DNA from: a virus
Length of the DNA: 64,000 nucleotides
IMG/VR virus record: IMGVR_UViG_3300020171_000022
Coordinates: 2,449 to 66,448 of that record
Strand: one strand, 5' to 3'
Part shown: piece after piece, positions 3,291-23,818 of the stretch
How the letters are laid out: each line of letters begins with the position of its first letter
Position numbering within the stretch: position 1 is the first letter of the stretch
The notes under the pieces: generated by a model
Told to the model about the DNA's origin: nothing
Database searches by the model: none
The model's input: only the letters and a program-made list of their open reading frames with translations
Translations under genes and position numbers: made by a program

Positions 3291-3291
3291 T

Positions 3292-4650: not shown

Positions 4651-4662
4651 TATTGAGGAAAT

Positions 4663-5139
4663 ATGGCCTTTAATCCAGAAATACATCAAGTTAAGTTAAT
4701 CATCATTAAGTGTGGTAAAGCATTGCGTGAAGCCAAAGGATTACCCGAAGAGAAAAACATCACTACGCTTTACGAAGAAGCCTCGGCCATATTAGGGATG
4801 CCTACAATTTCTACGACAACTCAAGATGCTGACCACCTTCCAGCACCACATGAGATGGTGAGGGAAAATGGGACTCCAATTATTCCTCTTAGAAAGTGTC
4901 CCCGGTGTGGAAAAGAAGCAATGCAGATGTTCGGGCTTTGCCATACCTGTAAGGATGCTGAGGGTGAGAATGGCGAAATAGGAAAATATAAGGTAAAGTT
5001 TGAATGTAAGGAATGTCAGTTTCAAGAGAAATCAGATAAACCCATGGTATTATGGCTTCAAGAAATGGGTGTGGACTTTGGGATGATGTCTAAGAAGAAC
5101 CTTGGGATTAAGACCATCACTGATGATGGAATTAAGTAA
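4663..5139 (+). CDS. hypothetical Zn-ribbon protein
   Basis: CPRC, CHTC and CKEC motifs; RBS GAGG. Confidence 0.6.
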   Translation: MAFNPEIHQVKLIIIKCGKALREAKGLPEEKNITTLYEEASAILGMPTISTTTQDADHLPAPHEMVRENGTPIIPLRKCPRCGKEAMQMFGLCHTCKDAEGENGEIGKYKVKFECKECQFQEKSDKPMVLWLQEMGVDFGMMSKKNLGIKTITDDGIK

Positions 5140-5150
5140 GGAGGTGTATT

Positions 5151-6167
5151 ATGGCTACAGCAACGGGATTTCAAAAACGTTGGTTTGCATTTGAGGAATC
5201 AGCGACGATTGTAAAAGAAAAATTTGAGGATGGAAGGTCATATGCGTTAAATGCCTTGAATCAGGCCAATGCAGTTATTGAGGACTTAAGGCAGGTGGGC
5301 AAGACATTAAATATAATTGATATTACCACAAGCATCAATTATATTACCCCTCCCGATTCTGGAAGTTTTACGGGAACCATACCTTCGAGTCCAAATACAG
5401 ATATTAATCTACCGACTGCTCCATCAGATACGGATGATTTACAGTATGTGGTGCGTAGTAAAATCATCAATGACATATCGAATCTATCTGCGGCGATTCC
5501 TGAATCTGTGGAGACTGCAATATTTAACCGTGAGACTGAACGTGCCTTACTGGTTCATCAGAATAATCTTGACAATATTAGTGCAGAATGGGCTAAACGT
5601 GGATTCACTTTGGCCAATGCAATACTGGGTCAACTTTTGGCTCAGGCTGAAATAGATTATGCCAACAAAAGATTGGATATAAGCAGGGATATTGCGATCA
5701 AGAATTTTGAACTTTCAGATGCCAATATCAAGTTTGCCGTTCAACAAGGTATTTCTTATATTGGATATAAGGTAACAATGTACAGCGCTCAAGTGAACAC
5801 CGAAATTGCAAGGATTGACTCGATAATCAGGAAATATCTTGGTGACCTTGATGCTTATAAAACATCAGCCCAAGTGTTTGCGTCTCTGGCTGAGATTAAT
5901 GTGAGGGAATTTGAGGCAGAGTTAAAACAAGAGTTAATGAAGGCCGAGTTGCTTATCAAAAATGTGGAGATAGATATTAAGAATTTTGAGGTAGAAATGA
6001 ATGTGAGATTGGAAGCGGCCAAGTCTATAGGAGGCATTAATTCTCAGGTAGTTGCCGGTGCATTGTCAAGCATTAGTGCATCTGCAAGTATATCGGCTGA
6101 CAACAAAGCTTCGCATAACAGTGCGTATCTGGTTGATTGGAGTTTTTTTGATCCATTAACCGTATAA
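5151..6167 (+). CDS. coiled-coil virion structural or internal protein
   Basis: 338 aa, Ala/Glu/Ile-rich helical; RBS AAGGAGG. Confidence 0.6.
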   Translation: MATATGFQKRWFAFEESATIVKEKFEDGRSYALNALNQANAVIEDLRQVGKTLNIIDITTSINYITPPDSGSFTGTIPSSPNTDINLPTAPSDTDDLQYVVRSKIINDISNLSAAIPESVETAIFNRETERALLVHQNNLDNISAEWAKRGFTLANAILGQLLAQAEIDYANKRLDISRDIAIKNFELSDANIKFAVQQGISYIGYKVTMYSAQVNTEIARIDSIIRKYLGDLDAYKTSAQVFASLAEINVREFEAELKQELMKAELLIKNVEIDIKNFEVEMNVRLEAAKSIGGINSQVVAGALSSISASASISADNKASHNSAYLVDWSFFDPLTV

Positions 6168-6170
6168 TTA

Positions 6171-8786
6171 GTGGAGGAATATATGAGAACAGATTGGTAC
6201 AAGGATGTTAATCCTAATTTGGATAGGTTAGCTCAAATCCTTGGGATGGCTACACGAGGGGGTGGAGGCGGAATGTCTAAACCTTCGCATGGATATACGA
6301 TAGCCGAGAAAGCCCCTGAAGTGGTGACAGCTCCTGGGGTCTACTTTCCTGCGGAAAAGGGAGAAGTTATACCGCTTGAATCCAGACAAGGTGGAGGTAG
6401 TGTATTTCCGTCATCATCCAAAGATAACGATACAAGAAAACTGGATATGCTTGAATCTATCCTTCGCAGTGTAAAACCATCCAATCTTGAGTCAAGGGAA
6501 TTGGGGGGATTGGTCATCCCTCCACATGGTGAACTGGAAAAATTAAAAATAGAGCAATCGAAATATGACATCCTCAAGTCAGCCATATCTGTTCTAAAAC
6601 CACAGGGACAGCAGAAGTCGGCCTCTAACGAACAGGGGCAGAAGAAGTCTCCTTCCAGCGAAGGGGGTATTCCGCTTGAGTCAAGACAGATGGGGGGAGG
6701 TACAAATCCTGGTTTCCGATCTCCAGAAAACCTTTGGGAGAGAAAGCAAATGAGTGATTGGGGGCCTGGGGCAAGCAGAATAGTCGATGGCAAAAGGGTT
6801 CAGTGGCAGGAAGGAATGACTACGCCCTTTGAAGTAAAAGAATCTACGGCAGATAAGGGGATAAGTGAAGGTAAAGGGACAATGTCAATCGGTTCAGAGA
6901 AGTTGGTTGCGGGTGGAAAACCATATTCAATGTTAAAACCGCCCTCTCTACCAGGTATCCCCGAACCTCCTACCGCACAAAGCTATGGGATACAGCCAGA
7001 AGCCACAAAGTTGGGGGTAGCAGATAAGGGAATAAGCGAAGGGGACTTGTTATGGCAGAAGAAAAGGAAGGAAGGTATGGCGGCAGGTCAATGGTCTATA
7101 CCTATGTTCTCCCGTACTAATGGTGGAGGTGTTAATTCATCTTACGGAGTTAGGGCAGATGGCACACAAAAAGGTAAGGGATTTTGGGGAGAGTTGCAAG
7201 GAGCAGAAGGGAAACCTTCAACCGAACTATCCATCGGTGTAAACTTTGACGGAAAAGAGACAGAGATACCAACCCTTGTCCCAACACTAACTCAACAAGA
7301 AATTGATTATTTGCTTGGTGGTGGAAAACCTACACTTGAAATAGTTGATAAAGCGGTGGAACATGCCAGACAAAGAATATTTCAAGGGAAGAGTCCATTC
7401 GCTCAAGAGGGTGAGCAGAAACCAATGACATTTGAGTCAAGACAATATGGTGGCACTGTTACGCCTCCCGATGATGAAAACGAACGTAGAAAGAAAGAAT
7501 TGGCGGAACTTATGACACCTCGTGCCGTTTCAACGCCTTCTCCTACACCTGAAATATCGATTCCTGCAGGACTCAAAGGGTTTATTACAGACATAAAAGA
7601 TACGCCGGCTGGGAGGGTTTATGCGGGGCCAGAAGGACAAGCGACTGTCGGGCCTGAGAGATTCTTTCTTGGAGATAAAGAAGTTCCCGCCGGAACTCCA
7701 GGGGCTATAAGTGGAGAAATATTAGCAAAAGAACAGTTATCTGCTGATATAAAGAAACAGGAGTCAGAGAGAGAATTGATTGCGAAAGGTATGGGTTTTG
7801 GAAGAGACCTTGGATACTGGGCGGCTCATCCAGAAGAAAAGGCAATGTATGATTTTGAGCAGATGCTTAGTAGGGGCCGTTATGCTGCCCCCCAACGTGC
7901 TGAACTTACAAAGCAATATATTGAGAGCAGGGAAGTAAAACCAGCAAAAGCACCTGCTCCTCATTTAGTCCAAAATGAAAAAGGTGAATATGTATGGGCG
8001 GTTCCTGGGGGAGTATTACCTGCTGGAATTATGGGAAAGCCACTGACTGAAACTTTACCAAGTTTTCAAGAGTATAAAAGAATACCTGGGAATGAAGGCA
8101 AAACTTATGAAGATTTCAGGAAATGGGAAACAAGTTTAAAAGAAAGAGAAATAGTGCCTTCTGGTATACGTGAATTTGAAATGGCGAGTGGGATGGAATC
8201 CACCAAAAGAGGGACTCCTGAGTATAGTAAATCTTATTTAGAGTTTCTCGGCGGGAAAAAAGAAGCAAATCCACTTGAACAAAAAAAATTGGGAGCAAAT
8301 TTAAGAAAAGAATTTAACAACTTACAACCCGTAAAGGATTATAGAGATATTGAAACAAGATTTAATATAATGGGCAAAGCAATAAAGGAATCTGAAATTA
8401 CTAAGAATTTTGTAGCCGTTGATCAGGCATTAATTACTATTTTTAATAAGATGACTGATCCCCAATCTGTTGTTAGGGAAAGTGAATATATCAGAACACC
8501 ACAGGACTTAGCGCTTTGGAATAAGATTAAGGGAAAGGTTTCAAAGATGGCTGCTGGTGGTGCTGGTCTAACTCCTGATGACAGGAATGCATTATACATA
8601 ATGGCAAAACAGTTTCAAATCGCATATGAATCGAAATTTAAGGAACTTCGGAATGAGTATAGGGGATATGCCGTAGATTATGGTCTTGATCCAGAGACTG
8701 TAATTAAATCAAAGACGGAAGTTGTAAAGAAAAAGGATTACAAATCTATGAGCAATGAGGAGTTATTGAAAGCATTGGAGGAATAA
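6171..8786 (+). CDS. putative internal virion (ejection) protein with repeated ESRxxGG motifs
   Basis: 871 aa, Gly/Pro/Glu-rich, position typical of podovirus ejection proteins. Confidence 0.6.
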   Translation: MEEYMRTDWYKDVNPNLDRLAQILGMATRGGGGGMSKPSHGYTIAEKAPEVVTAPGVYFPAEKGEVIPLESRQGGGSVFPSSSKDNDTRKLDMLESILRSVKPSNLESRELGGLVIPPHGELEKLKIEQSKYDILKSAISVLKPQGQQKSASNEQGQKKSPSSEGGIPLESRQMGGGTNPGFRSPENLWERKQMSDWGPGASRIVDGKRVQWQEGMTTPFEVKESTADKGISEGKGTMSIGSEKLVAGGKPYSMLKPPSLPGIPEPPTAQSYGIQPEATKLGVADKGISEGDLLWQKKRKEGMAAGQWSIPMFSRTNGGGVNSSYGVRADGTQKGKGFWGELQGAEGKPSTELSIGVNFDGKETEIPTLVPTLTQQEIDYLLGGGKPTLEIVDKAVEHARQRIFQGKSPFAQEGEQKPMTFESRQYGGTVTPPDDENERRKKELAELMTPRAVSTPSPTPEISIPAGLKGFITDIKDTPAGRVYAGPEGQATVGPERFFLGDKEVPAGTPGAISGEILAKEQLSADIKKQESERELIAKGMGFGRDLGYWAAHPEEKAMYDFEQMLSRGRYAAPQRAELTKQYIESREVKPAKAPAPHLVQNEKGEYVWAVPGGVLPAGIMGKPLTETLPSFQEYKRIPGNEGKTYEDFRKWETSLKEREIVPSGIREFEMASGMESTKRGTPEYSKSYLEFLGGKKEANPLEQKKLGANLRKEFNNLQPVKDYRDIETRFNIMGKAIKESEITKNFVAVDQALITIFNKMTDPQSVVRESEYIRTPQDLALWNKIKGKVSKMAAGGAGLTPDDRNALYIMAKQFQIAYESKFKELRNEYRGYAVDYGLDPETVIKSKTEVVKKKDYKSMSNEELLKALEE

Positions 8787-8787
8787 A

Positions 8788-10905
8788 ATGCCTGACTGGG
8801 AAGCCTACAAAGAAGCCTATGACAGAGGAGTTTTATCTGAAGAGAAAAAGGGTTTATATGAAGAGGCCATAAAAAGAAAATTAACTACAGGAGAACCGAC
8901 AACTTTACAACCTATTCAGGTAGGTGAAGAACCTGCTGGTGGTATGTTTGGTCTTCTTGGCAAATTAGGACTCAAAGAGAAACAGTTCATCACACCTCCG
9001 CCACCAGGAGGGCCTATTGAAGAACCCGGACTTAAACGCCCAGATATTGTCAGTGATCCAGTAGATGTAATACAAGGTATTTTGACTGGAGGAACTCTTG
9101 GGTTACTGAAAACCGGAGGAAAATTAACAAAGCCTGTTGCTGAAGAAGCATTGGCTTGGGCAACTTACAATGCTCCCGCTTTGGCCAAAAGTATCTATAA
9201 AGGCGTTTCTGGTGTAATCCCTGGTCTTTCTGCCAAAGCATTAGAGAAAACCATTCCCGTAGAAAAAGCTGCTCCGATAGCAATGCAGGTAGGAGAGAGT
9301 TTTCTTAGTAAGATTATACCTGGAATGGCTAAAGCAACCACCCCAGAAATGCAAGGGATTATTGATTTAGCAAAGAGAGAGAAAGTTTCAATCCTTGCTC
9401 CAGATGTTACGGGAAATAGAACACAAGCTCTTCTTTTTAATGCAGCGGATAAGGCAATAGGCGGTGCTGGTGTTACCCAAAAGGCAGCGGCAAGAACAAT
9501 TCAGGATATGAATGCTTATGGTCAAAGGGTTTTATCTGGATTGGGAGGAGAACTTGAAAAAGCTGGTTTAGGTGAAGTGGCAAGATTTGGGATGAAGACA
9601 AAATTTGATCCAGTAGAAAAATTTGGAGATAGTCTCTATGATATTGCAGCAAAAGAGGCAACAGGAACTCCAACGATCTTGAGTAATACTACAAAAATAG
9701 TAGATGAAATTAGGAAAACAAAAGATTTTCAGTATTTACCTGGGCCAATAAGATCAGTATTAAATAAAGTTTTTTCTGATATTAGTCCAGTTGCTAAAGT
9801 TACCGCTGGTACAAGATATGGAGGTATGCCACAAGATATTTTGGCTAAACTTCAAGAACAGGGAATTAGTAAAACAATGGATTTCTCCGAACTCGAATCT
9901 ATCCGAAGGGCTGTCTCAAAATTATCCTTTTATAAAGAAATCTCAGGGGATCAAGGTAATAGATTTGCCAAACAAGTTCTTGTGGCAATAGATAAGGATA
10001 TGGATTTAGCTGCCGCCAAGGCTGGTACACTCGCAAAGTCAGCTCTTGATGATGCAAGAAAATTCCAAAGGGAAGAAATATTCGGAGTATTTAAGGGTGA
10101 AACAGCATTAGGTAAGCCCTCCATTGGTAGAAGGATTTCCACAATTCAAAATGAGGATTTCCTAACTATTATCTCAAAGGGGAATCTAACAGAATTAAAA
10201 GATATGAAAAAGGTATTGCCTGAATCAACCATTCAAAATGTTAAGCAGGCATGGCTAACCGATTTGTTCTCTCGACATCAAAAAGACTTAATGACACCAC
10301 AGGGTATTGTAAAAGTTTTAAATGTTCCGGCGGCGGGTAGAGAAATAGATAAATTTGGGGATTTATACCTTAAAACTTTATTCAATAAACAAGAATTTCA
10401 AATGATAGACAACTTCAGAAAATTGTCTCAGCATATAGGGGCTGCCGAAAAAATAGCGGGCAACCCATCTGGTACAGCACAGACCATATATACTATCCAA
10501 CTAATTACAGGAGGATTATTGGCTGGATATGGGACATGGAAGGAAAGCCCTGTAAGTGCCGCCACGGGGTTAATTCTCACATTTGGAGGCCCCTATGGTA
10601 TCGCCAAATTTATGACATCCCCGACTGGATTTAGATATATGACTACAGGGATCGAGAAATCTCCTCTAATTAGGGATATTATTACTCAATCCCTAAAATC
10701 TGCTGCGATTGCGGGAACTCATGCAAATATAGATATAAGGCAAAGAGCTAGTATACCGATGGGAAAAACACCAACAGAATCAACCCAGATACCGATAATA
10801 CCAAGAGCAACCGGAGGCCCTGTTTCTCCTACGATAATAAAGAGTTCTATTGACAATATATTACCATTTGGTATTATATCTACAAGGGGGGCATTAAATA
10901 AGTGA
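8788..10905 (+). CDS. putative DNA transfer/ejection protein
   Basis: 705 aa, Ala/Gly-rich, NPSGTA followed by hydrophobic helices; last gene before the lysis module. Confidence 0.6.
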   Translation: MPDWEAYKEAYDRGVLSEEKKGLYEEAIKRKLTTGEPTTLQPIQVGEEPAGGMFGLLGKLGLKEKQFITPPPPGGPIEEPGLKRPDIVSDPVDVIQGILTGGTLGLLKTGGKLTKPVAEEALAWATYNAPALAKSIYKGVSGVIPGLSAKALEKTIPVEKAAPIAMQVGESFLSKIIPGMAKATTPEMQGIIDLAKREKVSILAPDVTGNRTQALLFNAADKAIGGAGVTQKAAARTIQDMNAYGQRVLSGLGGELEKAGLGEVARFGMKTKFDPVEKFGDSLYDIAAKEATGTPTILSNTTKIVDEIRKTKDFQYLPGPIRSVLNKVFSDISPVAKVTAGTRYGGMPQDILAKLQEQGISKTMDFSELESIRRAVSKLSFYKEISGDQGNRFAKQVLVAIDKDMDLAAAKAGTLAKSALDDARKFQREEIFGVFKGETALGKPSIGRRISTIQNEDFLTIISKGNLTELKDMKKVLPESTIQNVKQAWLTDLFSRHQKDLMTPQGIVKVLNVPAAGREIDKFGDLYLKTLFNKQEFQMIDNFRKLSQHIGAAEKIAGNPSGTAQTIYTIQLITGGLLAGYGTWKESPVSAATGLILTFGGPYGIAKFMTSPTGFRYMTTGIEKSPLIRDIITQSLKSAAIAGTHANIDIRQRASIPMGKTPTESTQIPIIPRATGGPVSPTIIKSSIDNILPFGIISTRGALNK

Positions 10906-12122
10906 CTACTCCCCTGAATAAATTCAGGGGCTTCTTGGGACAAGTCCCAGGCTCTGTAGTCCCAGAGCTAAAATATTTAAGGAGGCATTATAATCTCGAT
11001 GCAGACGAACATTACAAGTAGGGCATTGATGCCAACGGACAGACAAGTCTTTTTTGACTATAGTTCCGCATTGGCTACAAGTCTGACTTGTGCCTCTTGG
11101 GTTAATTGCTATAAACTGTCGAGCAGCTTCTTCCGCTTTCTGCGACAATATATTAGCAAATTGACTCCAGGCCACATCCGAAATAGATTTAGCCAGAAAA
11201 CCGTTTTGCAACATATTCTTGGTGTTAAGTTTTTCAATACAGATAATGCCAAATTTATTGACAATCTTTCTGGTTTCTTGGTGAATGAAATTATGTCGCC
11301 TATTAGAGATTCTCTCGTGGATACGAACAACAACTTTTTTAACCTTAGCTCTTTCAGAAGTGTTTTTAATTTGTTTAGACAATCTCCTTTGAGCCTTTGC
11401 AAGAGCCTTTTGGTCTGTCTTAAAAAAGCGAGGGTTCTTAATCTTCTCTTTAGTGGAAAAGGTGGCAAAATTCTCAAGTCCGACATCTATACCAACTGCT
11501 TTGGTAGTTTCAGACAATGGCTTAGGCTCATATTGAATAGAAAAACAGACATACCATTTTCCCGCTTGTTTTCTAATAATGCAAGTTTTAAGAGTTCCAA
11601 AAATAGGCCGATGTATTTTGATTTTAACAGAACCTATTTTAGAAAGTTTAAGACAATTAGTTTCTATATTCCAACCAAAGTCTGGCTGTTTATAGGTGAA
11701 ACTGTTATAACGGTCAAAATTTTTAAATCTTGGATACCCAGGGGTTTGTCCTTGTTTCACTCTACGAAAGAAATTTTGAAAGGCTTTGTCTATTCTGTCA
11801 GCCACATTTTGGAGGCTTTGCGAATAGACCTTGTTAAGAGAGGGTCTCTCTTTTTTCAAAGCAACAATAGATTTGCTTTGCTGAAAGTATCCTATGCTTT
11901 TCTTATCTTTTTCCCAGGAGTTCTTGCGTTCCTCCAGAAAATGATTATAGAGCCAGCGACACTCATCAAGAGTTTCTTGAAGAAGTCTTTGCTGTTTCTT
12001 GGTAGGATACAATCTATATTTAAGAGATTTATTCATATGTTAGATTATACCTTAAAGGAAAATAAATGTAAAGGGCAATTCATCCCCCGTTTAAAAACAG
12101 GGGCTTTCTTGCCCAATTAAAT
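10902..12122 (-). mobile_element. IS200/IS605-family non-autonomous element (tnpB only)
   Basis: left-end hairpin preceded by guide AAAG with target TTAC at 12123-12126 (- strand); right-end hairpin preceded by GAAG and ending TCAC; fits IS608-type guide/cleavage pairing. Confidence 0.85.
10924..12036 (-). CDS. tnpB: RNA-guided endonuclease TnpB
   Basis: KYRLYPT N-terminal HTH; RuvC motifs GIDVG, IEKL, RDYNASLNI; CSQC/CPTC Zn finger. Confidence 0.95.
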   Translation of the reverse strand: MNKSLKYRLYPTKKQQRLLQETLDECRWLYNHFLEERKNSWEKDKKSIGYFQQSKSIVALKKERPSLNKVYSQSLQNVADRIDKAFQNFFRRVKQGQTPGYPRFKNFDRYNSFTYKQPDFGWNIETNCLKLSKIGSVKIKIHRPIFGTLKTCIIRKQAGKWYVCFSIQYEPKPLSETTKAVGIDVGLENFATFSTKEKIKNPRFFKTDQKALAKAQRRLSKQIKNTSERAKVKKVVVRIHERISNRRHNFIHQETRKIVNKFGIICIEKLNTKNMLQNGFLAKSISDVAWSQFANILSQKAEEAARQFIAINPRGTSQTCSQCGTIVKKDLSVRWHQCPTCNVRLHRDYNASLNILALGLQSLGLVPRSP

Positions 12123-12143
12123 GTAAGAAATAGGGAGGACTAA

Positions 12144-12368
12144 ATGATAACCTTTGAATGGCTGATCGGAACAGGAATTTCCATTGTTGGGATTATCACA
12201 ATCATTATGGTATACCAGCATGGCGTTACCAGGAAGTGTCTTAATGCCAAACCGGATATAAAGCTTTGCGATGAGAGGCATGATGTGATAGACAGGGCCC
12301 TCGAAAAGCTTGACAGGATTAACGATATAGTGGTGAGGATAGAGACGATATTGAATGGGAAACGATAA
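12144..12368 (+). CDS. small membrane protein of the lysis module
   Basis: N-terminal transmembrane helix plus coiled tail, directly upstream of the endolysin. Confidence 0.55.
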   Translation: MITFEWLIGTGISIVGIITIIMVYQHGVTRKCLNAKPDIKLCDERHDVIDRALEKLDRINDIVVRIETILNGKR

Positions 12369-12727
12369 TGGGAGATTTAACAGAGAGCTTTTCACGTAAA
12401 GAGTTCGCCTGCCGTTGTCAATGCGGATTTGATGCTATCAATATTGGTTTAGTACATCGACTTCAGGTGGTGAGGGATATTGCGAGAGTGCCTATCAAGA
12501 TACTTTCTGCCTGTAGGTGTCCAAAGCATAATGAAAAAGTGGGTGGTAAACCAGAAAGTTATCATCTAAAAGGGGATGCTATAGATTGGTGTTTCTTTGA
12601 TGAGGAAGATAGTCTGCTTGAAAAGTTATGCACTAAACTCCTTGATAATTGGGCAGGTGGGTTTCATCACTACCCTCAAGGGAATTTTTGTCATTCGGAT
12701 GTTGGGCCAAGAAGAAGATGGGTATGA
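12368..12727 (+). CDS. peptidase M15A-type endolysin
   Basis: EFACRCQCG, SACRCPKHNEKVGG..SYHLKGDAID and HSD motifs. Confidence 0.9.
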   Translation: MGDLTESFSRKEFACRCQCGFDAINIGLVHRLQVVRDIARVPIKILSACRCPKHNEKVGGKPESYHLKGDAIDWCFFDEEDSLLEKLCTKLLDNWAGGFHHYPQGNFCHSDVGPRRRWV

Positions 12728-12813
12728 GCGGTCTTAACTTCCCCTGGTATCTGCGACTAATTTGCTGGATTGCGGGGAAGATTGAGAAATTATTGGGAAG
12801 GAGGTGAATTGAG

Positions 12814-12978
12814 ATGCTACAAGGAAACAGAACTTATTTGATGGCGGTGGTGATTATCATTCACCAAATCCTTAACGCTATGGGGATGAAGGATATTACT
12901 GGAGAACAATTATCGATGGCGATTGATGTTATTCTGGGGATAGGAGTTTTCATCTTCAGGAAACTTGCAAAAAAATGA
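12814..12978 (+). CDS. putative holin (54 aa; not in the ORF track)
   Basis: MLQGNRTYLMAVVIIIHQIL...VILGIGVFIFRKLAKK: two hydrophobic helices, basic C-terminus, RBS AAGGAGG. Confidence 0.6.
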   Translation: MLQGNRTYLMAVVIIIHQILNAMGMKDITGEQLSMAIDVILGIGVFIFRKLAKK

Positions 12979-12989
12979 AAGGAGGAGTT

Positions 12990-13538
12990 ATGAAAAGAAA
13001 AATCAGTCTATTTCTGGTGATGGCGGTAATGATGGCGATGGTGGTATCCTGTACAGGGGTGCAGGAGAAATGGAACGCTCTCACTCCTGATGAGAAGGCT
13101 AGGGTCGTGGTTAGCGACATCCAGGCTCAACTCAATACCCTTTTTGATACCGGAAAGGCTTATGTGACGGCTAATCCAAAGTATCAAGAAAAGTGGAAAG
13201 GACAGATCGTTCCAGCTTTCGATGTGGCAAACAAAGCCCTTGCTTCTTCCATGATTCTTGCTAAAGCAGGAAAAATTACTCCAGATCAGGTTTATGCTCA
13301 AGTTCAACCTGTTCTAAATTCAGTTATTACCTTATTGGTATCTATTGGAGCAGTTAAACCTATTACAGCAGCCGTAGATATTATGATTGTTTTGGCTCTG
13401 ATTAACGGGTTGATGGGATTAGCCTATAACGCATGGTCAACCATTAATAAGGTTAAGGGTGATCAGAAGATACCGACCTGGGATGAGATTTTAGAGGAAA
13501 ATAAGAAATTACAGGACAAAATTGATGCGGAGAAATAG
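12990..13538 (+). CDS. lipoprotein with C-terminal hydrophobic helices (spanin candidate)
   Basis: signal peptide with lipobox-like VVSC; end of lysis module. Confidence 0.55.
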   Translation: MKRKISLFLVMAVMMAMVVSCTGVQEKWNALTPDEKARVVVSDIQAQLNTLFDTGKAYVTANPKYQEKWKGQIVPAFDVANKALASSMILAKAGKITPDQVYAQVQPVLNSVITLLVSIGAVKPITAAVDIMIVLALINGLMGLAYNAWSTINKVKGDQKIPTWDEILEENKKLQDKIDAEK

Positions 13539-13548
13539 TCCGTGCGGT

Positions 13549-13590
13549 GCAGGGCTTCTTTGCTACAGGCAGGGAGGCCCTTGCTTTTTT
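13549..13590 (+). terminator. Rho-independent terminator between convergent operons
   Basis: GCAGGGCTTCTTTGC/GCAGGGAGGCCCTTGC hairpin followed by T6. Confidence 0.7.
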
Positions 13591-13600
13591 CTGACATTCC

Positions 13601-13619
13601 GCTTATTGCACTGTTAGCC
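13601..13619 (+). other. attI-like recombination site of array A
   Basis: GCTTATTGCACT-GTTAGCC; core is complementary to GGCTAAC of the first attC; near-identical to the site at 25370-25388. Confidence 0.7.
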
Positions 13620-13799
13620 CTTTATTAATGAACGATAATCTTTTAATTTTTCCCTAAATCTTTGCTTCATCATATATGCATCGTAATCATAATTCCAATG
13701 ATCATATTTCCGAGCCATATAGGATTCGGCAATATCTAACAACTGGGCTAACAAGTCATTCGAGCGGACGTTTGATAGTCCACTATTTTCTTTGGTCAT
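13614..13799 (-). CDS. cassette protein, start encoded inside attC (MTKENSG leader)
   Basis: GAGG + ATG in the attC loop; TAA overlaps the GTTA core. Confidence 0.65.
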   Translation of the reverse strand: MTKENSGLSNVRSNDLLAQLLDIAESYMARKYDHWNYDYDAYMMKQRFREKLKDYRSLIKG

Positions 13800-13825
13800 A
13801 AATGCCTCTTCCGCTCAATTCTGCG

Positions 13826-14011
13826 TTATGTTGATTCTAATTTACTACCACACTCAGGACAAAAATTAACATTTACTATTGATGCAGAATTTTCTTTGTC
13901 TGGATATCCTGGTAAATATTTCTGCCAAATGGGTTGAGGATTTATTAATTCACACCAACATAACAATTCATTCGAGCGGACGTTTGATAGTCCACTATTT
14001 TCTTTGGTCAT
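13826..14011 (-). CDS. cassette Zn-finger protein with MTKENSG leader
   Basis: CWC...FCPECG; no Met outside the attC. Confidence 0.65.
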   Translation of the reverse strand: MTKENSGLSNVRSNELLCWCELINPQPIWQKYLPGYPDKENSASIVNVNFCPECGSKLEST

Positions 14012-14046
14012 AAATGCCTCTTCCGCTCAATTCTGCGTTATATGGA

Positions 14047-14268
14047 TTAAATTCTAAATGTAGGTTGATCTTTCCCTTCTCTCCAGAAAATGAATCGTTG
14101 CCACCAAAATTCTTTGGAAGCATAATTATATTCACACACAGGGCAAGTATAAAGATTTGGAGCATCTGAATTGCACCGAGGACAAAAACCAAACACAAGT
14201 CTTATCTTGCCCAAAATTCTATTCCTATTTGTTTGCAGTGACATAAAAGGAAGCCTCCGTATAATCAT
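14047..14268 (-). CDS. cassette Zn-finger protein
   Basis: CPRC...CPVC; fills the interval between two attC sites. Confidence 0.6.
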   Translation of the reverse strand: MIIRRLPFMSLQTNRNRILGKIRLVFGFCPRCNSDAPNLYTCPVCEYNYASKEFWWQRFIFWREGKDQPTFRI

Positions 14269-14308
14269 TTATTCCAGCCGATGCTAAAAAGCACGGCTGA
14301 CCTCTACG

Positions 14309-14851
14309 TTATACCTCAAAATAATGAATCTCATTACCCCATTGTTCCCAACCTTCACGTTGCTCTCTACTGAATACATCCATCTTCACGGCTTCAGGAT
14401 ACCAAAGGCTTATCATCTTATACGCAATGTCAGGCTTCCTGCTGTGCTGTCTTGCCGGTTCTCTTATCACTGTCATAAACTTACCCCTTGTCTCAGTGCT
14501 CACTGGCTGAAATTTTGGTTTGTAGAACCATGTTAAGTATTCATGAGCATACCGAACAGAGAAGGCGGGAGCTACACCGTTGCATTTATCCCATATCAGC
14601 CTTGCATGTCTGCGATAGCCTCTCTGCTCCATCGCCAGTTCGCCTATCATCAAAAACTCGTCAATGCCCCACAGAAAAACAGAATGCGTCTTTGTCGCCA
14701 TTGGGAAAACTTCCTTGTCTAAAAGCCCGAAAATTGCCATAACATCAAGCGTGGCGTAATCAAGGTTTTTCCCTTGCCGTGGCCTTGCACTTCTCAGACC
14801 CCCCTTCTTTTTAGGCCAAGGGGGATCAATAACGAAAATATTAAATGACAT
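14309..14851 (-). CDS. MT-A70 family adenine methyltransferase (cassette)
   Basis: IDPPW, HSRKP, FSRE..GW..WGNE motifs. Confidence 0.9.
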   Translation of the reverse strand: MSFNIFVIDPPWPKKKGGLRSARPRQGKNLDYATLDVMAIFGLLDKEVFPMATKTHSVFLWGIDEFLMIGELAMEQRGYRRHARLIWDKCNGVAPAFSVRYAHEYLTWFYKPKFQPVSTETRGKFMTVIREPARQHSRKPDIAYKMISLWYPEAVKMDVFSREQREGWEQWGNEIHYFEV

Positions 14852-15172
14852 AACCAGCCAATCAACCCGACCGGGAATAGTCCTGGCGGGTTATCCGCAC
14901 GTTATTTTTCCTCTTCTTCCCCTTCACACTCATGCCCAATTTCGCCTGAAGTATCCGCCCCACATTTTAGGCAGACATACCCAGGCCCATTATCGATGAA
15001 AAATGAATACATATCTATTACTTTTCCTCTTTGTCATCAATTATTCGCCATCTAAGATGATAGGCAGCTATTTTTTTGATGTCGAACAAATGCCCATTTA
15101 ATACCTTCAATTCTTTGATTAATGCCTCAATCATTGGCAGAATCTTCTCTAAGTCAAGCATCTCTCACCTCA

Positions 15173-15358
15173 TCAATCTGGCAATTTGATATTGAAATCT
15201 CCCAATGCCTGATTCACTTTCAATAACAATTCTTTTCCATTTTCTATAAATTTTGCTTGCTCTTCGTTAATCGGGTCCTGACTTATCATCCAAAGCAATT
15301 TTGTTCGACAGTCAAGAAGGGCATTAATGAGCTCTTTGATTTCCGTGTTGGTCAACAT
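15173..15358 (-). CDS. hypothetical protein
   Basis: 61 aa, RBS GGGGAG, coupled to neighbouring small ORFs. Confidence 0.55.
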   Translation of the reverse strand: MLTNTEIKELINALLDCRTKLLWMISQDPINEEQAKFIENGKELLLKVNQALGDFNIKLPD

Positions 15359-15556
15359 TTATCTCCCCACCTCCCCCCTGTAAAGATCCTTCCAGTTATC
15401 CCTTGACTCCTTTAGGTTGGCAACCTCTGCCTCCAACTCCTTGATAATTGTCTCATCCCAATCATGCTTGGCAAGCAACTCCTTGATACGTTGAGTAAGT
15501 TGTTTTACATATTCATAATTTTTAGGCTTAGGTCTCATCTCTTCCCCCTTTATGTT

Positions 15557-15766
15557 CTAAATAGGAGTAGTCTCGTTATTGTTCACATTCTTTCGCCCCC
15601 TGAATCGCAATTCAAGGGCATTAGGCGTATTTCTGTATGCATCACACCTGTCCATGCGAATATGATCTTTTAGTCCAATCAAATCAAAATCTTTCTCACC
15701 GCAAAAGGGGCAACATAACAAGTCATTAGAGCGGACGTTTGATAGCCCGCTATTTTCTTTGGTCAT
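15557..15766 (-). CDS. cassette Zn-finger protein with MTKENSG leader
   Basis: GGAGG + ATG inside attC; CPFCG...H motif. Confidence 0.65.
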   Translation of the reverse strand: MTKENSGLSNVRSNDLLCCPFCGEKDFDLIGLKDHIRMDRCDAYRNTPNALELRFRGRKNVNNNETTPI

Positions 15767-15801
15767 TCATACCTCCGCCGCTCAATTTTACGTTGGGCGG
15801 A

Positions 15802-15981
15802 TCAATCATGGACATAATCCATAATCTCTCCGGTTGAACAAACACCCTCAAGTAGTTCGGCATTAGTGGGTGTAATAATCACCGAAACATGGGGGTGACA
15901 ATTATCGCACAGGAATTTAAGTAATGGGCGGCAAATGGTGTCAAACTCGGATCTTTGTTGGTCTGTCAGTATCATGGTCAT
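15802..15981 (-). CDS. cassette hypothetical protein (59 aa; not in the ORF track)
   Basis: MTMILTDQQRSEFDTICRPLLKFLCDNCHPHVSVII...; RBS AAGGAG. Confidence 0.6.
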   Translation of the reverse strand: MTMILTDQQRSEFDTICRPLLKFLCDNCHPHVSVIITPTNAELLEGVCSTGEIMDYVHD

Positions 15982-16062
15982 CTCCTTTTAAATTAAGGTT
16001 CTGGGCAAATCGCCCAACCAGCGGGTCCAGCGGATGGCCAAGAGCCACCCCTGACCCAGACG

Positions 16063-16224
16063 TTATGTGGAACTAAATGTTGGTTCTTCATCTCTCATCA
16101 CTATTGCCGATTGTTTGCCCTCACACTCGTCTGGGCATGTATAAATATCAAATCTTGAAAGTGGGTATAGTTGTCTTCCAAAAACCATTTCCTTTCCACA
16201 TTGTGGACATTTGGGTATTTCCAT
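16063..16224 (-). CDS. cassette Zn-ribbon protein
   Basis: MEIPKCPQCG...CPDEC; RBS GGAG; stop in the core site. Confidence 0.6.
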   Translation of the reverse strand: MEIPKCPQCGKEMVFGRQLYPLSRFDIYTCPDECEGKQSAIVMRDEEPTFSST

Positions 16225-16385
16225 GGTAATCTCCATTAAAAAATGATAAGACCTCCACATAACAAGTCAATCCAGCGGACGGTCAATAAGCAGGTATCTC
16301 GGCCCAAACATCATCCTGACCTTCTGTTATGCTTTCGCATTGGGCAAGGTGCTTTCGCCACTATTGGCCGCCGCTGATCTCTACG

Positions 16386-16616
16386 TTATCTGATAAAAAT
16401 TGCGAACAATCCCCCAATGGTGCATCCAACCAGAGCAGATCCGCCACCAATGCATTGCGCAACGATTGCGGAGGTTTCTGTCGTAAGCAATAAATGTGAT
16501 CCAAGTAATGTAAAAAATGCACCAAAAATAATAATACAAGAACAAAGAAAAAGAAGAGTATGATTATCCCGACAGATAACAACGGCATCGATCAGACGCC
16601 GAATAAAACTTGTCAT
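16386..16616 (-). CDS. cassette membrane protein, start inside attC
   Basis: two hydrophobic helices; ATG in the attC loop; TAA in the core site. Confidence 0.6.
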   Translation of the reverse strand: MTSFIRRLIDAVVICRDNHTLLFLCSCIIIFGAFFTLLGSHLLLTTETSAIVAQCIGGGSALVGCTIGGLFAIFIR

Positions 16617-16655
16617 TTTTTACCATCCCTTCTCCGGCGCAGATCATGCCGGACG

Positions 16656-16934
16656 TTAGGTGTCACAAATCAATAATTTGACTTTTGCATCGACAAGTCG
16701 CCTTTTTAAAAAGCTTATATCCCGCTCGAAACGCCGGATGATATATTGCCATGCATCATGTTTGCTTTGATAAATATCCCCGATGCGAAGACATTTTTTG
16801 ATGCCATCAAGATAAAGCCATCCAGATTTAGTTGTTTTAAGTATTAAATATGGTCCCTTGGGTTCTTGGCCCTCAATAATCCAACACCTAACAATCGGCT
16901 GCACTTGAGCCTTAACAACTCTTTTAGATTTCAT
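16656..16934 (-). CDS. cassette hypothetical protein, start inside attC
   Basis: AAGGAGG-AACC-ATG in the attC loop; TAA in the core site. Confidence 0.7.
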   Translation of the reverse strand: MKSKRVVKAQVQPIVRCWIIEGQEPKGPYLILKTTKSGWLYLDGIKKCLRIGDIYQSKHDAWQYIIRRFERDISFLKRRLVDAKVKLLICDT

Positions 16935-17038
16935 GGTTCCTCCTTACCGGCCAAGTGAGCCGGAACGTTATCTGACATTAAACAATTCATTCTCAAAAAA
17001 TATATATGATATGATGATGGAGAATGGTAGGTTCATGT

Positions 17039-17668
17039 TTATCCTTTTTTAATCTGTTTATTAAGATAATAAAAGTCTAAAAGTTTTAAAAATGCCTCAA
17101 AATGGAGGGATAAATCTGTTTTAACTTCTTCCTTGAAAGACTCATCCTCTGTCCGGGGAATGTTTAGGATACGATATCTCTGGATAGGTTCTGTAATCAA
17201 TTTGCCATACCCTGCCACCTGAAGCCACATCTCCTCATAAATCCCACTCCCAGTTTTAAAATCTACAATCTCAAGGGTTCCATCAATAAACCCATATAAA
17301 TCAAAGGCCCCACCATATTTATATTCTTCCGACACCGCTTGATGTTCCATTAAAATAGGTTCAATTTTATGCTGTTTCTCCCATTCCAAATAGGACAAGA
17401 ATGAATTTTCGGCGGCATCAATCTGATTCTTGCTGTAATCCTCTGTCTCTGGTTCACGCTTCGAGAGATGGGCAAGAATCATCTCGTGGGCAAGAGTTCC
17501 AATATCAGCTTTATCGTCTCGAAATTTACTTGAATCAATTCCTGCAAGTCCTAATTTATTCGCCCATATAATCAGGGCAGGTTTTGAAAGTTGACCCGTA
17601 ACAGTCGTTACACCAACGACTATTTCCCCTGATTCAAGTTTATATCTCTGATGTGCTTTAGATTTCAT
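17039..17668 (-). CDS. PD-(D/E)XK exonuclease (phage recombination nuclease)
   Basis: GVTTV, GTLAHE, GAFD...VDFKTG, QVAGY motifs. Confidence 0.85.
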   Translation of the reverse strand: MKSKAHQRYKLESGEIVVGVTTVTGQLSKPALIIWANKLGLAGIDSSKFRDDKADIGTLAHEMILAHLSKREPETEDYSKNQIDAAENSFLSYLEWEKQHKIEPILMEHQAVSEEYKYGGAFDLYGFIDGTLEIVDFKTGSGIYEEMWLQVAGYGKLITEPIQRYRILNIPRTEDESFKEEVKTDLSLHFEAFLKLLDFYYLNKQIKKG

Positions 17669-17676
17669 CTATCCTC

Positions 17677-17925
17677 CTAAAAGGGAACATTTTGTTCATC
17701 ATCCTTCAGTGATTGCTTATTCTGTTTTCCACCAAGAATATCCATTAAAAATCCTTTAAATTTCTCAAGGTGCTCATGCTTAATCGTGAGATTTTGATAC
17801 TTTTTGTTTTCCTTGAAGGTTGTAATTTTCTTTAAACTTACAAACGAATATTCTCTGCCATCCTTCTTGAAAGTAGCATCCTCATCCCATTCATATTCAA
17901 TTGTATCAAGGTGTAGCCTTAGCAT
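17677..17925 (-). CDS. small putative ssDNA-binding protein
   Basis: acidic DDEQNVPF C-terminus; located between ERF and exonuclease. Confidence 0.5.
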   Translation of the reverse strand: MLRLHLDTIEYEWDEDATFKKDGREYSFVSLKKITTFKENKKYQNLTIKHEHLEKFKGFLMDILGGKQNKQSLKDDEQNVPF

Positions 17926-18599
17926 TATTTCTTCTCCTCTGCAAATTGACTTTTTAGATGATCTTTGTAGGCCACCAGTTCGTTAAACTCTACCGCTGGT
18001 AATAGTTTTATGTCCGCTCCATGCTTCTTCCACCAGTTTTGTAATTCAAAAATGCTTTTAATATCATGCATTCGATTTTGATATTCTTCAAACGTTGAAG
18101 AGGCGGGCGGAGGCTGGTCACTGGAATCTTTTCTTATCCCCTTCGTCTCTTTTTTTAACTTATTCTTTGTCTCAATTCCCCTTCCCACAGCCCCCTCACC
18201 GTCATCATCTTCGGGCGCAATCCCCGCAATCGCAGCCAAAGTATACCTACGGGCATAGGTTAGGGCAGACCCAAGACTTTGGGGATCTTCTGATGCAGTC
18301 CAACCCTCCCCCTGTTTCTGTCTCATCGGATTAATGGGATATATTCCTGAAATGGATTCCCCACTAATATGAGAAAGGATTGTTTCAAGGTATAATTTCC
18401 CTTCGATCATTTTTGTAATCTGGATGACTGCAAGACCATTATCCGTCAATGGTTTTCGACAGGCTTCCCAGACGGAGGCAAGGTCGGCATATGAAGCCTT
18501 GAAATATGGGTTTTCAGAGTCTTTTATGGCTCCCTGAATTATGGATTGTGCTTTACTAAGAGCTTCGGTTAATTTACTTAACGCCTTACTCTCTTCCAT
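17925..18599 (-). CDS. erf: ERF-family single-strand annealing protein
   Basis: NPYFKASYADL and GSALTYARRYTLAAIAGIAPEDDDG motifs. Confidence 0.92.
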   Translation of the reverse strand: MEESKALSKLTEALSKAQSIIQGAIKDSENPYFKASYADLASVWEACRKPLTDNGLAVIQITKMIEGKLYLETILSHISGESISGIYPINPMRQKQGEGWTASEDPQSLGSALTYARRYTLAAIAGIAPEDDDGEGAVGRGIETKNKLKKETKGIRKDSSDQPPPASSTFEEYQNRMHDIKSIFELQNWWKKHGADIKLLPAVEFNELVAYKDHLKSQFAEEKK

Positions 18600-19119
18600 C
18601 TTCTTCCTCCTTTCTTATTTTTTCGTGAAGTTCACGATGGCAATTTGAGCAAAGAGAAATACATTTTTTTAATTCTTTTAATGTTCGTTCTGTCGGTTTA
18701 CTTGAAAAAATTTTTCCGCTCGGAGTTTCTTTTTGTCCGGGATTTATATGGTGAAGATCAATTGCACAAAATGAACGATTATATCCGCACACTGAACAAT
18801 GAATAAGATCGAGTTTATTTAATATTTGCATCCAATATTCTTTGTTTTTTTTGTAAAAATTAGCATTATGTTTTTTTTGAATCTCTCTGTTTCCAGGTAT
18901 GGAAAGCCACATATTTCTATGTTTAAGACGACCCTTTAAATTACAATCCTTACATTTTTTGGGATAACGGCGCTTGGGTTCATATCTTTTATATTTTTTA
19001 ATAAAAAATTCATTTAATGATTTTATTTCTCCGCACTTTGTGCATCTTTTCTCGGTCAAAGTAATACGACTTGCATTTAGGACACCTTCTAACATCGGAA
19101 CATCTGGGATACCATCCAT
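18586..19119 (-). CDS. HNH-type homing endonuclease
   Basis: KRCTKCGEIK, CSVCG, DLHHINP, LCSNCHRELH. Confidence 0.8.
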   Translation of the reverse strand: MDGIPDVPMLEGVLNASRITLTEKRCTKCGEIKSLNEFFIKKYKRYEPKRRYPKKCKDCNLKGRLKHRNMWLSIPGNREIQKKHNANFYKKNKEYWMQILNKLDLIHCSVCGYNRSFCAIDLHHINPGQKETPSGKIFSSKPTERTLKELKKCISLCSNCHRELHEKIRKEEEDGRE

Positions 19120-19273
19120 GACCGCACCTCAGACATTTGACACTTTGAATTTTAATCTTCATGGTTTAATTGTATCCCTTATAAGTAAGTTTGTCAAGTT
19201 TTATTTTTCCATCGAAAATGCCCGCCTCCGGATCCCCTCTTCTAAGTTCCGGTTAAAGCCAGGCGGGGATGGC

Positions 19274-19498
19274 TTATTTGTCCCACTCTGCACGTTTAGA
19301 AATTTCAGCCTCGATTAGGGGCAATATTCTTTTTATTTCCCGAATTCTAATTTCAAAAGAGCTTAACAAACCCTTTCCATCCTTTAAGGATTCTTGCCAA
19401 CCCTCTAGGGTTAAATACCCATATTGATCTTTTTTCCAATGCCAACTGAAATGCCACGAGGAATCTATGATGTCATAAATTTCAGATTCTAAGCTCAT
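19274..19498 (-). CDS. hypothetical protein
   Basis: 74 aa in the leftward operon, RBS AGGGGAG. Confidence 0.55.
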   Translation of the reverse strand: MSLESEIYDIIDSSWHFSWHWKKDQYGYLTLEGWQESLKDGKGLLSSFEIRIREIKRILPLIEAEISKRAEWDK

Positions 19499-19510
19499 CT
19501 CCCTGTCTCC

Positions 19511-19699
19511 TTATTTCTTAATCTTCAAGGTCGTCTCTAAACCCGTTATCCTTCCTGTCAAACTCCCAATGTCTTTATCGTTCTGGTATACCATTTTTCT
19601 TATCTCATCTGCTTTCCAATCTCGCCAAATATAGCCTGCTTCAAAACTTGACAACATAAGGGCCAAGATAAATATTATCCAAACAATTGTCTCTCTCAA
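19511..19699 (-). CDS. small membrane protein
   Basis: N-terminal transmembrane helix. Confidence 0.55.
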   Translation of the reverse strand: MRETIVWIIFILALMLSSFEAGYIWRDWKADEIRKMVYQNDKDIGSLTGRITGLETTLKIKK

Positions 19700-19886
19700 G
19701 TTCCATCACCTCCAGCGCTAAATTTAATTCCTGAAGCTTCAGGGCTATCTCCGCCTGCATCTCAAGCAGAACCCCAATATCCCCCTGGAAAGACTGATCG
19801 ATTTGGAGGCTTCTCCAGGTGAAGCCTATTGCAACCCCCAGAAGCAATATCAGGAATATTTTTATAACTTTCTCCCACATAAACAT
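19641..19886 (-). CDS. small membrane protein
   Basis: N-terminal transmembrane helix plus coiled coil; RBS AAGGAGG. Confidence 0.5.
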   Translation of the reverse strand: MFMWEKVIKIFLILLLGVAIGFTWRSLQIDQSFQGDIGVLLEMQAEIALKLQELNLALEVMELERDNCLDNIYLGPYVVKF

Positions 19887-19964
19887 TCAACCTCCTTAAT
19901 AGCCATAAGATAAGTTTGAGCTTCCGATAATGGATGAAATTTTTGATTCTAAACATCAAACGAA

Positions 19965-20312
19965 TCATTCTATTCCCTCGTCGGTGGGTTCATATGGGGC
20001 AACTTTTTTCTTTCTCCCTTTTTTCGGTTTGACATAAAAAGGACTTTTATCTTCGGAAAGACTTTTTAACGTTTCAGGAAACTTTTCGGCATGTTCTACG
20101 GGAGGAACATCCCGAAATCTTCCAGAATCAGAAGTTCCTTTTGCCGCCTCAATTTCTGCCTTCTTCCGCCTATTTCTTCTTGGCTTCGGAGGTTCCGGGC
20201 GATTGATTTCGCCGATGAGAACTTTGGTTTCGATGGCATGAAGAGCAATTGCAAGAGACCTTTGCGCCTCCAATATAAGCCGCTTGATTTCCGATAAGTT
20301 AATCGTTTCCAT
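19965..20312 (-). CDS. hypothetical basic protein
   Basis: 115 aa, RBS AAGGAGG. Confidence 0.65.
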   Translation of the reverse strand: METINLSEIKRLILEAQRSLAIALHAIETKVLIGEINRPEPPKPRRNRRKKAEIEAAKGTSDSGRFRDVPPVEHAEKFPETLKSLSEDKSPFYVKPKKGRKKKVAPYEPTDEGIE

Positions 20313-22731: not shown

Positions 22732-23023
22732 GGGAGATCATCGAGGGCATCTACTTCTAGTGAGTTGCGGCCAATAGGGTGAAAACCAAAATAAGAGATT
22801 GCATAAGACAATCCATATGAGTGAAAGGCTCTTCTATTGGCCGTCAACTCCAGTGATTTGTTATCTTGCTTGACTCAATAGGAATGACAAAAAGTGCTAA
22901 CCCGAATAACACTGACAAATCATTCGGCTGACGGGCAGCAAACCGGAACCGTAATAGTTTCGGGGTTAAGCAAGATAACGTAGAGGTCAGCGGCGCTTTG
23001 GGTGTCCGCTGGAGTGATTGGTT

Positions 23024-23209
23024 ATGCCAGATATAATCCAAGAGATCCACCAAATCGAAGAAATTGCGTGGCAATGGTTTGCAGAGATATATCCACATGA
23101 ATGCTATGCCAGTTGGCCTGACCGATTCTGGGACTTCTTCCATATCAAATGTCCTAATGTGACACGTGAACAGATGGAACGGATACTTTCAGAAACGGAT
23201 GATGCATAA
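23024..23209 (+). CDS. cassette hypothetical protein
   Basis: ATG within GTTATGC box; TAA within GCATAAC. Confidence 0.6.
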   Translation: MPDIIQEIHQIEEIAWQWFAEIYPHECYASWPDRFWDFFHIKCPNVTREQMERILSETDDA

Positions 23210-23280
23210 CGTAGAGGTCAGCGGCGCTTTGGGTGTCCGCTGGAGTGATTGGTTAGGCGAAAACCACGAAAGGAGATTAT

Positions 23281-23469: not shown

Positions 23470-23525
23470 CGTAGAAATCAGCGGGAGCCTTTGGCAATCC
23501 GCTGGATTGACTGGTTAGGTGATTT

Positions 23526-23744: not shown

Positions 23745-23818
23745 CGCAAAGGTCAGCGGCGTGTCGCACGTCCGCTGGAGTGACTTGTTATATTTTTTAT
23801 TAAAGTGAGGGAAGAAAA

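Follow-up and report, generated by a model that had tools for sequence, protein, structure and literature searches.

A phage whose sequenced record holds no integron integrase appears to carry a minimal attI core at the heads of two gene cassette arrays, and it is likely that a host integron integrase uses this core to exchange cassettes. In other words, the phage probably borrows an enzyme of its host to swap genes. The proposal is drawn from sequence comparison. The window, that is, the whole stretch of 64,000 nt analysed here, spans positions 2,449-66,448 of IMG/VR record IMGVR_UViG_3300020171_000022. In the full record (66,448 bases, estimated to be 58% complete), no match to the integron integrase model TIGR02249 was found, and hence no adjacent divergent intI of the kind that accompanies an attI in the same replicon.

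Phage marks in the window, identified through PHROG matches, comprise a virion structural protein, an Erf-type annealing protein and an exonuclease (Table 1); DNA methyltransferases are a further mark. No tRNA was found in the window, and a megablast search with window positions 1-20000 retrieved no close relative among deposited phage genomes. Genes between 17039 and 20312 run leftward and those from 20995 run rightward, so arrays A and B sit in two divergent operons, each with one copy of the site, as the preliminary description had stated. The attC bottom strand carries all the cassette genes, which are co-directional with the flanking phage operon.

A covariance model (R1) was built from ten short attC sites of the window, and these ten, scoring 57-80 bits, match by construction. 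Three are the strong matches on the + strand of array A (14259-14314, 14848-14907 and 16012-16068), and seven lie on the - strand of array B (62-80 bits). The longer attC types matched more weakly, and nothing comparable was detected elsewhere in the window. Independent support for R1 comes from 23 sites retrieved at E<=1e-5 on other contigs. With at least two attC sites per strand in the array and no TIGR02249 match in the record, the arrays qualify as CALINs, i.e. integrase-less attC clusters. Two genes of the attC-free stretch inside array A have homologues in the array-bearing contigs L173 (49-72%) and L119 (67%).

At 14 of the 18 junctions, the TTRRRY with which a cassette begins complements that cassette's own R'' box perfectly, though the boxes themselves differ (for example, TTGGGC with GCCCAAC). 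The 14 include both junctions that adjoin the 13-mer described below, and in array B alone the count is eight of nine. Circular cassettes cut at G^TT (the caret marks the crossover) predict such own-end complementarity, which the opposite strand assignment does not; crossovers thus happen at these G^TT points. Extra bases on the 5' arm of the top strand are the rule in attC sites, and in the attC folds this arm carries an unpaired C and then, after a 6-bp stem, a bulged A. Complementary ends and extra bases together uphold the cassette boundaries and strand assignment first proposed.

Table 1. Positions of the features discussed; all lie in the window except the last, which is numbered on its own contig
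Feature	Position	Strand	Remarks
Terminator (GC-rich hairpin and T-run)	13549-13590	.	Between convergent gene 12975-13538 (+) and array A
Candidate attI core, copy A	13596-13619	+	ATTCC-GCTTATT (L-box-like), GCACT 5-nt spacer, G^TTAGCC R box; crossover 13613/13614
Cassette array A	13614-16973	+	attC top strand +, ORFs -; nine recognisable attC sites
MT-A70 cassette, array A	14309-14851
attC-free stretch inside array A	14908-15712	-	About 800 nt, four small genes
Last junction of array A, G^TTATCT	16967-16973	+	66 nt AT-rich spacer to exonuclease stop
Exonuclease gene	17039-17668	-	Phage mark
Erf-type annealing protein	17925-18599	-	Phage mark
Cassette array B	22755-25375	-	attC top strand -, ORFs +; cassettes B1-B8 and ORF-less B9
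Cassette B9, ORF-less	22755-22972	-	Starts TTATCTTGCTT; R'' region AAGCAAGATAAC at 22866-22877 complements start
MT-A70 cassette, array B	24428-25048
Candidate attI core, copy B	25370-25392	-	(gCCA)GCTTATTACACTG^TTATAC; crossover between 25376 and 25375
Solitary attC (L130)	2516-2571	+	35 bits; downstream of acetolactate synthase genes; GC-rich Lentisphaeria MAG

The letters with which the arrays had been said to open are correct: 13601-13619 (+) reads GCTTATTGCACTGTTAGCC and 25370-25388 (-) reads GCTTATTACACTGTTATAC. Common to both heads is the R-degenerate 13-mer GCTTATTRCACTG, which occurs exactly twice in the 64 kb, each time at an array head and abutting the first G^TT. About 0.004 exact matches would be expected by chance (2 strands x 64,000 x 2/4^13), and its presence at the two heads is far beyond chance. 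A search of the accessible literature returned the 13-mer in neither orientation. In array A the conserved block amounts to 18 nt, ATTCCGCTTATTGCACTG, that is, the 13-mer and the preceding ATTCC. At 4 of 17 positions copy B departs from the TTCCGCTTATTGCACTG consensus; it may be decaying or weaker. As in an attI, both copies are followed directly by the first cassette and the crossover falls at the G^TT of a GTTRRRY box, and the hexamers at the two heads (TTAGCC and TTATAC) perfectly complement the R'' box of the first cassette (GGCTAAC and GTATAAC, respectively).

The preliminary description had suggested looking for the site next to intI genes. A metagenome scan with the 18-mer CCGCTTATTGCACTGTTA returned 40 loci, in which all 18 letters are fixed by the query and the flanks and separately found variants are the independent part; about 12 of the 40 look like chance matches, being inside genes or representing one sequence found three times. 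In contig L155, the motif core (6524-6541, +) was found beside a divergent intI gene that starts at 6370 (-) and encodes a protein of 334 aa, scoring 433.2 bits against TIGR02249 (cut-off 265). From the crossover G to the intI start codon there are 168 nt. L155 is 86.7 kb long and its next large gene encodes a sigma-54-dependent activator, which identifies it as a bacterial chromosome; its G+C content is 53%, against 41% in the window. The stretch between intI and the motif contains the box AATAAGTGGA three times; this box is an inverted version of the motif's own TCCACTTATT/TCCGCTTATT box.

The platform of L155, about 190 nt long, is shared by L145, L152, L161 and L176, where it ends in ATTCCGCTTATTGCACTG^TTA; copy A of the window equals these four letter for letter over ATTCCGCTTATTGCACTG plus TTA. 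The hexamers that follow the crossover G of the platforms differ (TTAGAC, TTATAC, TTAACT and TTAGGT, respectively). Platforms have one to three inverted AATAAG[CT]GGA boxes at most 135 nt upstream of the core. In three of them intI remnants comprise the first 15-29 codons only (L152 1106-1192, L161 6551-6595 and L176 2289-2354), and integrase-dead platforms of the L155 family seem to be common. Since the motif stands beside the intI of L155 and the platform is common to four more loci, the motif is, as judged from these alignments, the end of attI nearest the recombination point in a natural integron family, and the window motif is the same as the attI of an integron with an adjacent integrase. 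The L155-type integrase family has 7,582 proteins at E<=1e-60, the best 120 of which are 79-100% identical. We found no experimental work on this family in the literature.

Two arrangements in this material deserve mention on their own account. In L152, positions 1343-2990 hold a tandem duplication of the attI core with one 819-nt cassette; the second core joins the cassette end at ...GGCCCTGCAC^AAAATTCC, as expected if the core can act inside an array. In L175 (about 430-477) and L172 (about 661-705, -), an inverted box (AATAAGTGGA and AATAGGTGGAA, respectively) lies some 6 nt upstream of the core, resulting in a near-palindrome.

An attC half would share part of this architecture. The motif could represent either one half (L'-spacer-R') of a special attC or a hybrid site travelling with cassettes and used as a folded single strand, and its layout (7-nt box, 5-nt spacer, GTTRRRY) indeed equals the 3' half of an attC; cassette B2, for instance, ends GCTTATC-TTCATC-GTTATCT. 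The 3' arm of a long hairpin often precedes the core (L119, L163 and L151), an R''-like ATAAC lies 35-55 nt upstream of it in L159, L173, L179 and L143, and the core recurs inside the arrays of the phage-like contigs L158, L164, L173, L179 and L180, so it may also travel as part of cassettes. In the window, no complementary L''/R'' partner was found upstream of either copy, and neither forms the imperfect palindrome, folding as a single strand, that characterizes an attC. No stable hairpin was predicted at either copy: the 140 nt ending at the site fold no better than shuffled sequences (z -0.49 for A and +0.30 for B), and the site is unpaired in both centroid structures. Moreover, the same letters end the platform beside intI, where an attI is expected. 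We therefore consider an attC half quite improbable; in these folding models, the window copies look like the double-stranded attI-type partner.

The attI core is also met in other phages. The exact 19-mer has a single match in IMG/VR, contig L001, where three R1 sites lie on the same strand (L160 seems to be the same contig). In L119 the array head reads ATTCCACTTATTACACTG^TTAGCG. L001 has no protein in common with the window at E<1e-5, and L119 only two small ones; the same core thus stands at the head of cassette arrays in unrelated phage contigs. As a control, a 15-mer of the site was sought in viral contigs, giving at least 116 stretches, and no attC was detected in any of the 80 screened. 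With a 17-mer of the attC 3' end, 14 viral stretches were retrieved, and nine of the 13 new ones, L119 among them, had an R1 match. Among the 40 metagenome loci, 17 had an attC-model match, and in all 17 the attC is on the strand of the site, with one downstream. Integrase searches of 10 other viral records, nine of them with array matches, gave no TIGR02249 match in nine, including G005 (100% complete).

Other elements were noticed in these contigs. L001 contains a second repeat family, hairpins of about 100-125 nt (2187-2311 and 1165-1262, both -) that lack an unpaired spacer and whose 11-bp ends, AACAGGGTCGG...CCGACCCTGTT, are perfect; they are R1-negative and precede the ribosome sites of bottom-strand genes, one of them directly upstream of the attI core. 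L123 (6440-6462, +) and L124 (about 10985-11010, -) have attC sites of the same family with another head motif, CTG(T)ATAATCAAT[TG]G^TTATA, in which the left box is nearly an inverted R box and the spacer has 5 nt. Possibly the motif represents the attI core of a different integron family. The record of L123 (93.8 kb, rated 100% complete) has no integron-integrase match.

Relatives of the window phage, all retrieved by the metagenome scan with the 18-mer, carry the core at orthologous positions. L146 encodes an exonuclease 86.6% identical to that of the window and a neighbouring gene at 63.9%; L164 shares two genes at 49-56%, and L167 three genes at 39-50%. The left flank of array A, comprising the terminator hairpin and the core, is common to the window, L146, L163 and L150 up to G^TT(A), after which the four diverge (TTAGCC, TTATAC, TTATCA and TTAGAT) and a different cassette follows in each relative. 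The hairpin, directly left of copy A and kept in all three relatives, has a 15-bp stem in the minimum-energy and centroid structures alike. Upstream of the core of array B, about 200 nt align with L164 (77% column identity) and homology ends after CACTG^TTA; the orthologous core of L164, TTCCAATTATTGCACTG^TTAGAT, is followed by a different cassette. In L167, the core lies directly before the homologue of 27197-27553. The putative core therefore sits where cassette content changes in phages.

To our knowledge, only GTT is strictly common to att sites. Integrase-mediated insertion outside att sites has been reported (bioRxiv 10.1101/2022.09.11.507474), and the cassettes might have entered ordinary secondary sites (attG-like, GTT), with a merely coincidental likeness of the left flanks. 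This is scarcely credible: the chance of 12 matching letters out of 13 at two junctions fixed beforehand is about 6e-7, and the core is met again at the array heads of other contigs and next to intI. The preliminary description had argued against random insertion at secondary sites, and the shared core at array heads and the end of flank homology at G^TT bear this out. The 13-mer, array-head and L155 results refute the secondary-site reading unless the loci prove to be assembly artefacts.

The likeness between phage and bacterial sites is confined to the core. In 27 non-redundant phage-like sites, the only conserved letters are (T)TTCC and the 13-mer, with no conservation further upstream; for most of the 27 the query itself sets CC and the 13-mer, though not TT. 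Conservation among platforms reaches much further upstream than in these phage-like contexts. No accessory AATAAG[CT]GGA box was found upstream of copy A or B with up to two mismatches, and with the upstream boxes absent the phage site is a bare core, whose efficiency could be low. Behind the bacterial platforms (L145, L152, L155, L161 and L176), genes are on the top strand at six of six sites. Behind phage-type copies they are on the bottom strand in 15 of 17 loci, the exceptions being L150 and L151, although this measure, the longest-ORF cover up to 2.5 kb downstream, is crude. The bottom-strand set comprises the window, L119, L143, L144, L146, L158, L159, L164, L169, L173, L177, L179 and L180. 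L165, a contig of 56% G+C with a platform-like upstream region, shows mixed polarity.

These comparisons bear on whether the core is a passive scar, left when illegitimate or homologous recombination brought in a piece of an integron (attI end and cassettes) as a block. The core matches the bacterial attI end exactly, the phage record has no integrase, several bacterial platforms are integrase-dead, so such fragments exist, and copy B has diverged, all as a relic would have it. However, at 27 of 27 phage-like sites, in many different flanks, the likeness to the platform breaks off some 18 nt upstream of the crossover, and the cassettes of relatives differ from exactly G^TT onward. The opposite coding polarity, bottom strand in the phage loci versus top strand behind the five platforms, shows further that the phage arrays are not copied bacterial arrays, which weakens block capture. 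We regard a relic as unlikely and favour a core that a host integrase uses.

The right half of the proposed empty site fared differently. The closing letters are as first described, GTTATCT at 16967-16973 (+) and 22973-22979 (-), and the statement that the two reconstructed sites are identical at 18 of 19 positions is arithmetically right; as evidence it falls short, since just 13 left letters are informative. Array B does not close at 22973 as had been thought: the TTATCT there opens a further cassette, B9, and the array ends near 22755. The long attC of B9 (22755-22876) has a 16-bp stem with one bulged A (fold -19.5 kcal/mol) and a degenerate R' (about G^TAGATG). B9 is the real promoter-proximal end of array B.

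ORF-less units of the B9 type were also seen in L181 (1139-1292), L146 (4440-4575, -) and L119 (445-575, -), in addition to that of the window at 22755-22972 (-). They begin TTATCTTGC..., end in the complementary ...GCAAGATAAC and continue into a long hairpin without a GTT R' box, GAGTTG-A-CGGCC... pairing with ...GGCCG-CAACTC. The unit occupies the promoter-proximal array end in the window and in L146; in L181 it directly follows the attI core, and in L119 the hairpin closely precedes the core.

TTATCT also stands 3' of internal attC sites (16385-16391 and 24420-24426), the sequences after its occurrences being unrelated to one another. It is the commonest hexamer after the crossover G in the window-type attC family (6 of 25 non-redundant ends), and the probability that both array ends read TTATCT is about 0.06. 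With the B9 start, the internal recurrences and this frequency, TTATCT is unsupported as a native right half. Array A has no further R'' box beyond its last junction (16967-16973), and nothing there assigns the TTATCT of this junction. The end of L146 beside the exonuclease gene differs from that of the window and has no equivalent flank, so the native right half of array A cannot be confirmed from it. On the bottom strand TTATCT reads AGA-TAA, and coding constraints may explain its frequency or shape the R-box letters. The stop codon of a bottom-strand cassette gene often falls in the crossover, as the TAA of G^TTA (13614-13616, 25373-25375 and most junctions).

An empty allele had been predicted in relatives, and none of L146, L163, L150, L164 and L167 has an empty site; nor did the searches yield an empty or polymorphic allele of the window phage itself. 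Searches by synteny gave four viral loci for the exonuclease gene (48-52% identity) with almost nothing else in common, no core and no significant attC-model match (best E=1); for the 546-aa protein of 28309-29949, no relative was found. The exact 19-mer of L001 was considered as an empty site and rejected. There, TTATCT begins a real cassette with the R'' box AGATAAC, and the ORF of this cassette ends in the crossover.

In the mechanism that we propose, the core would comprise the L-box-like GCTTATT and, after a 5-nt spacer (GCACT), the G of the R box, G^TTRRRY. During infection, a host integron integrase would bind the double-stranded phage core, which would recombine with the folded bottom strand of the attC of a circular cassette, the insertion falling exactly at G^TT. 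Repeated insertion and excision would build, shuffle and replace the arrays. With the core at the promoter-distal end of an array and antisense to the operon, bottom-strand cassette genes would be read by the two divergent early operons. The core alone would suffice as substrate. Gonzales Machuca et al. 2026 (PMC12901181) described delta-attI-type cassettes in which attI remnants down to 11 bp are functional with IntI1, which makes a bare phage core a plausible substrate.

The site had also been expected to predict the host. The integrase clade offers a lead only: the few named members of the L155-type integrase family come from MAGs labelled Desulfomonilia, Syntrophaceae, Syntrophales, Deltaproteobacteria and 'Proteobacteria bacterium'. 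Relatives of the L155 integrase in viral contigs reach 46% identity only. A scan for the attC subtype in one genome per prokaryote species detected one solitary site, in a Lentisphaeria MAG (Table 1) with no integron integrase above the cut-off. Solitary as it is, and in a MAG without integrase, this site is unconvincing as evidence for Lentisphaeria as the host.

A wider reading can be offered tentatively; taken as a whole, we rate its chances as somewhat short of even. Uncultured phages would form a guild of parasites on the host integron integrase, the hosts perhaps being Desulfobacterota of the Syntrophales/Desulfomonilia type. One or several decoy copies of the host attI core, 17-20 nt long, would run a separate phage cassette pool, whose genes lie on the bottom strand, with the attC supplying the ribosome site and start codon. 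Such cassettes would be expressed in phage operons, and would be antisense, and hence silent, if captured by the host integron. One docking core would then serve two gene pools of opposite polarity.

If a short attI copy does suffice, integrons would also be exploited by viruses, which would exchange anti-restriction and other small genes; each array of the window contains an MT-A70 methyltransferase. The core would provide a sequence link from uncultured phages to the integron family, and hence the host clade, on which they depend. It would also define, for an environmental integrase family with thousands of members, a naturally occurring attI substrate of about 18 nt. It could serve as a marker for phage cassette arrays missed by attC-based tools.

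Among known recombination sites, attI1 contains a 'simple site' of L and R boxes, to which full attI1 adds DR1 and DR2. The L155-type platform is similarly built, with a two-box core around the crossover and accessory upstream repeats, of which the phage keeps the core only. Unlike attI1, to which there is no sequence likeness, the L155-type accessory boxes are inverted relative to the core box; we infer that these AATAAG[CT]GGA boxes would bind integrase as their counterparts do. attG sites are not known to have much in common beyond GTT. Here, in contrast, 17-18 nt are conserved and equal the attI core. What the phage arrays would share with attG sites (bioRxiv 10.1101/2022.09.11.507474) is a trans-acting integrase that inserts cassettes outside a complete integron. 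Delta-attI cassettes, which may sit inside arrays (PMC12901181), resemble the internal cores of L158, L164, L173, L179 and L180. Those cassettes carry attI1 or attI2 remnants in clinical class 1 and 2 integrons with an integrase; they are non-phage and unrelated in sequence.

The nearest comparison in phages is provided by Qi et al. 2023 (PMC9892861), who described phage CALINs with DNA methyltransferase cassettes. The virulent Tetrasphaera phage TJE1 and Pseudoalteromonas phage PH101 have integrase-less attC clusters with methyltransferase cassettes, as the window does, and GTTRRRY is noted at the array boundaries (PMC9892861). Unlike those of the window, their cassettes have the typical bacterial orientation, and the accessible text of that study describes for them no conserved attI core matched to an intI-linked attI. 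In the Shewanella prophage M16-3 (PMC9892861), an attI near-identical to that of a bacterial integron heads the CALIN. A host-type attI at the start of an integrase-less cassette cluster in phage DNA is thus common to M16-3 and the window. M16-3, an inactive prophage, additionally contains a complete integron and the IntI belonging to it, in contrast to the window record, which is without integrase. The window phage, with virion and recombination genes, has only about 18 nt of the attI, in two copies in divergent operons, and its cassette genes are all on the attC bottom strand. Relative to the accessible text of Qi et al. 2023 (PMC9892861), four points are new: the core of about 18 nt alone, matching an intI-linked environmental attI letter for letter; its two copies in divergent operons of an integrase-less phage; its reappearance in unrelated phages and, at orthologous positions, in relatives; and its association with cassettes of inverted polarity.
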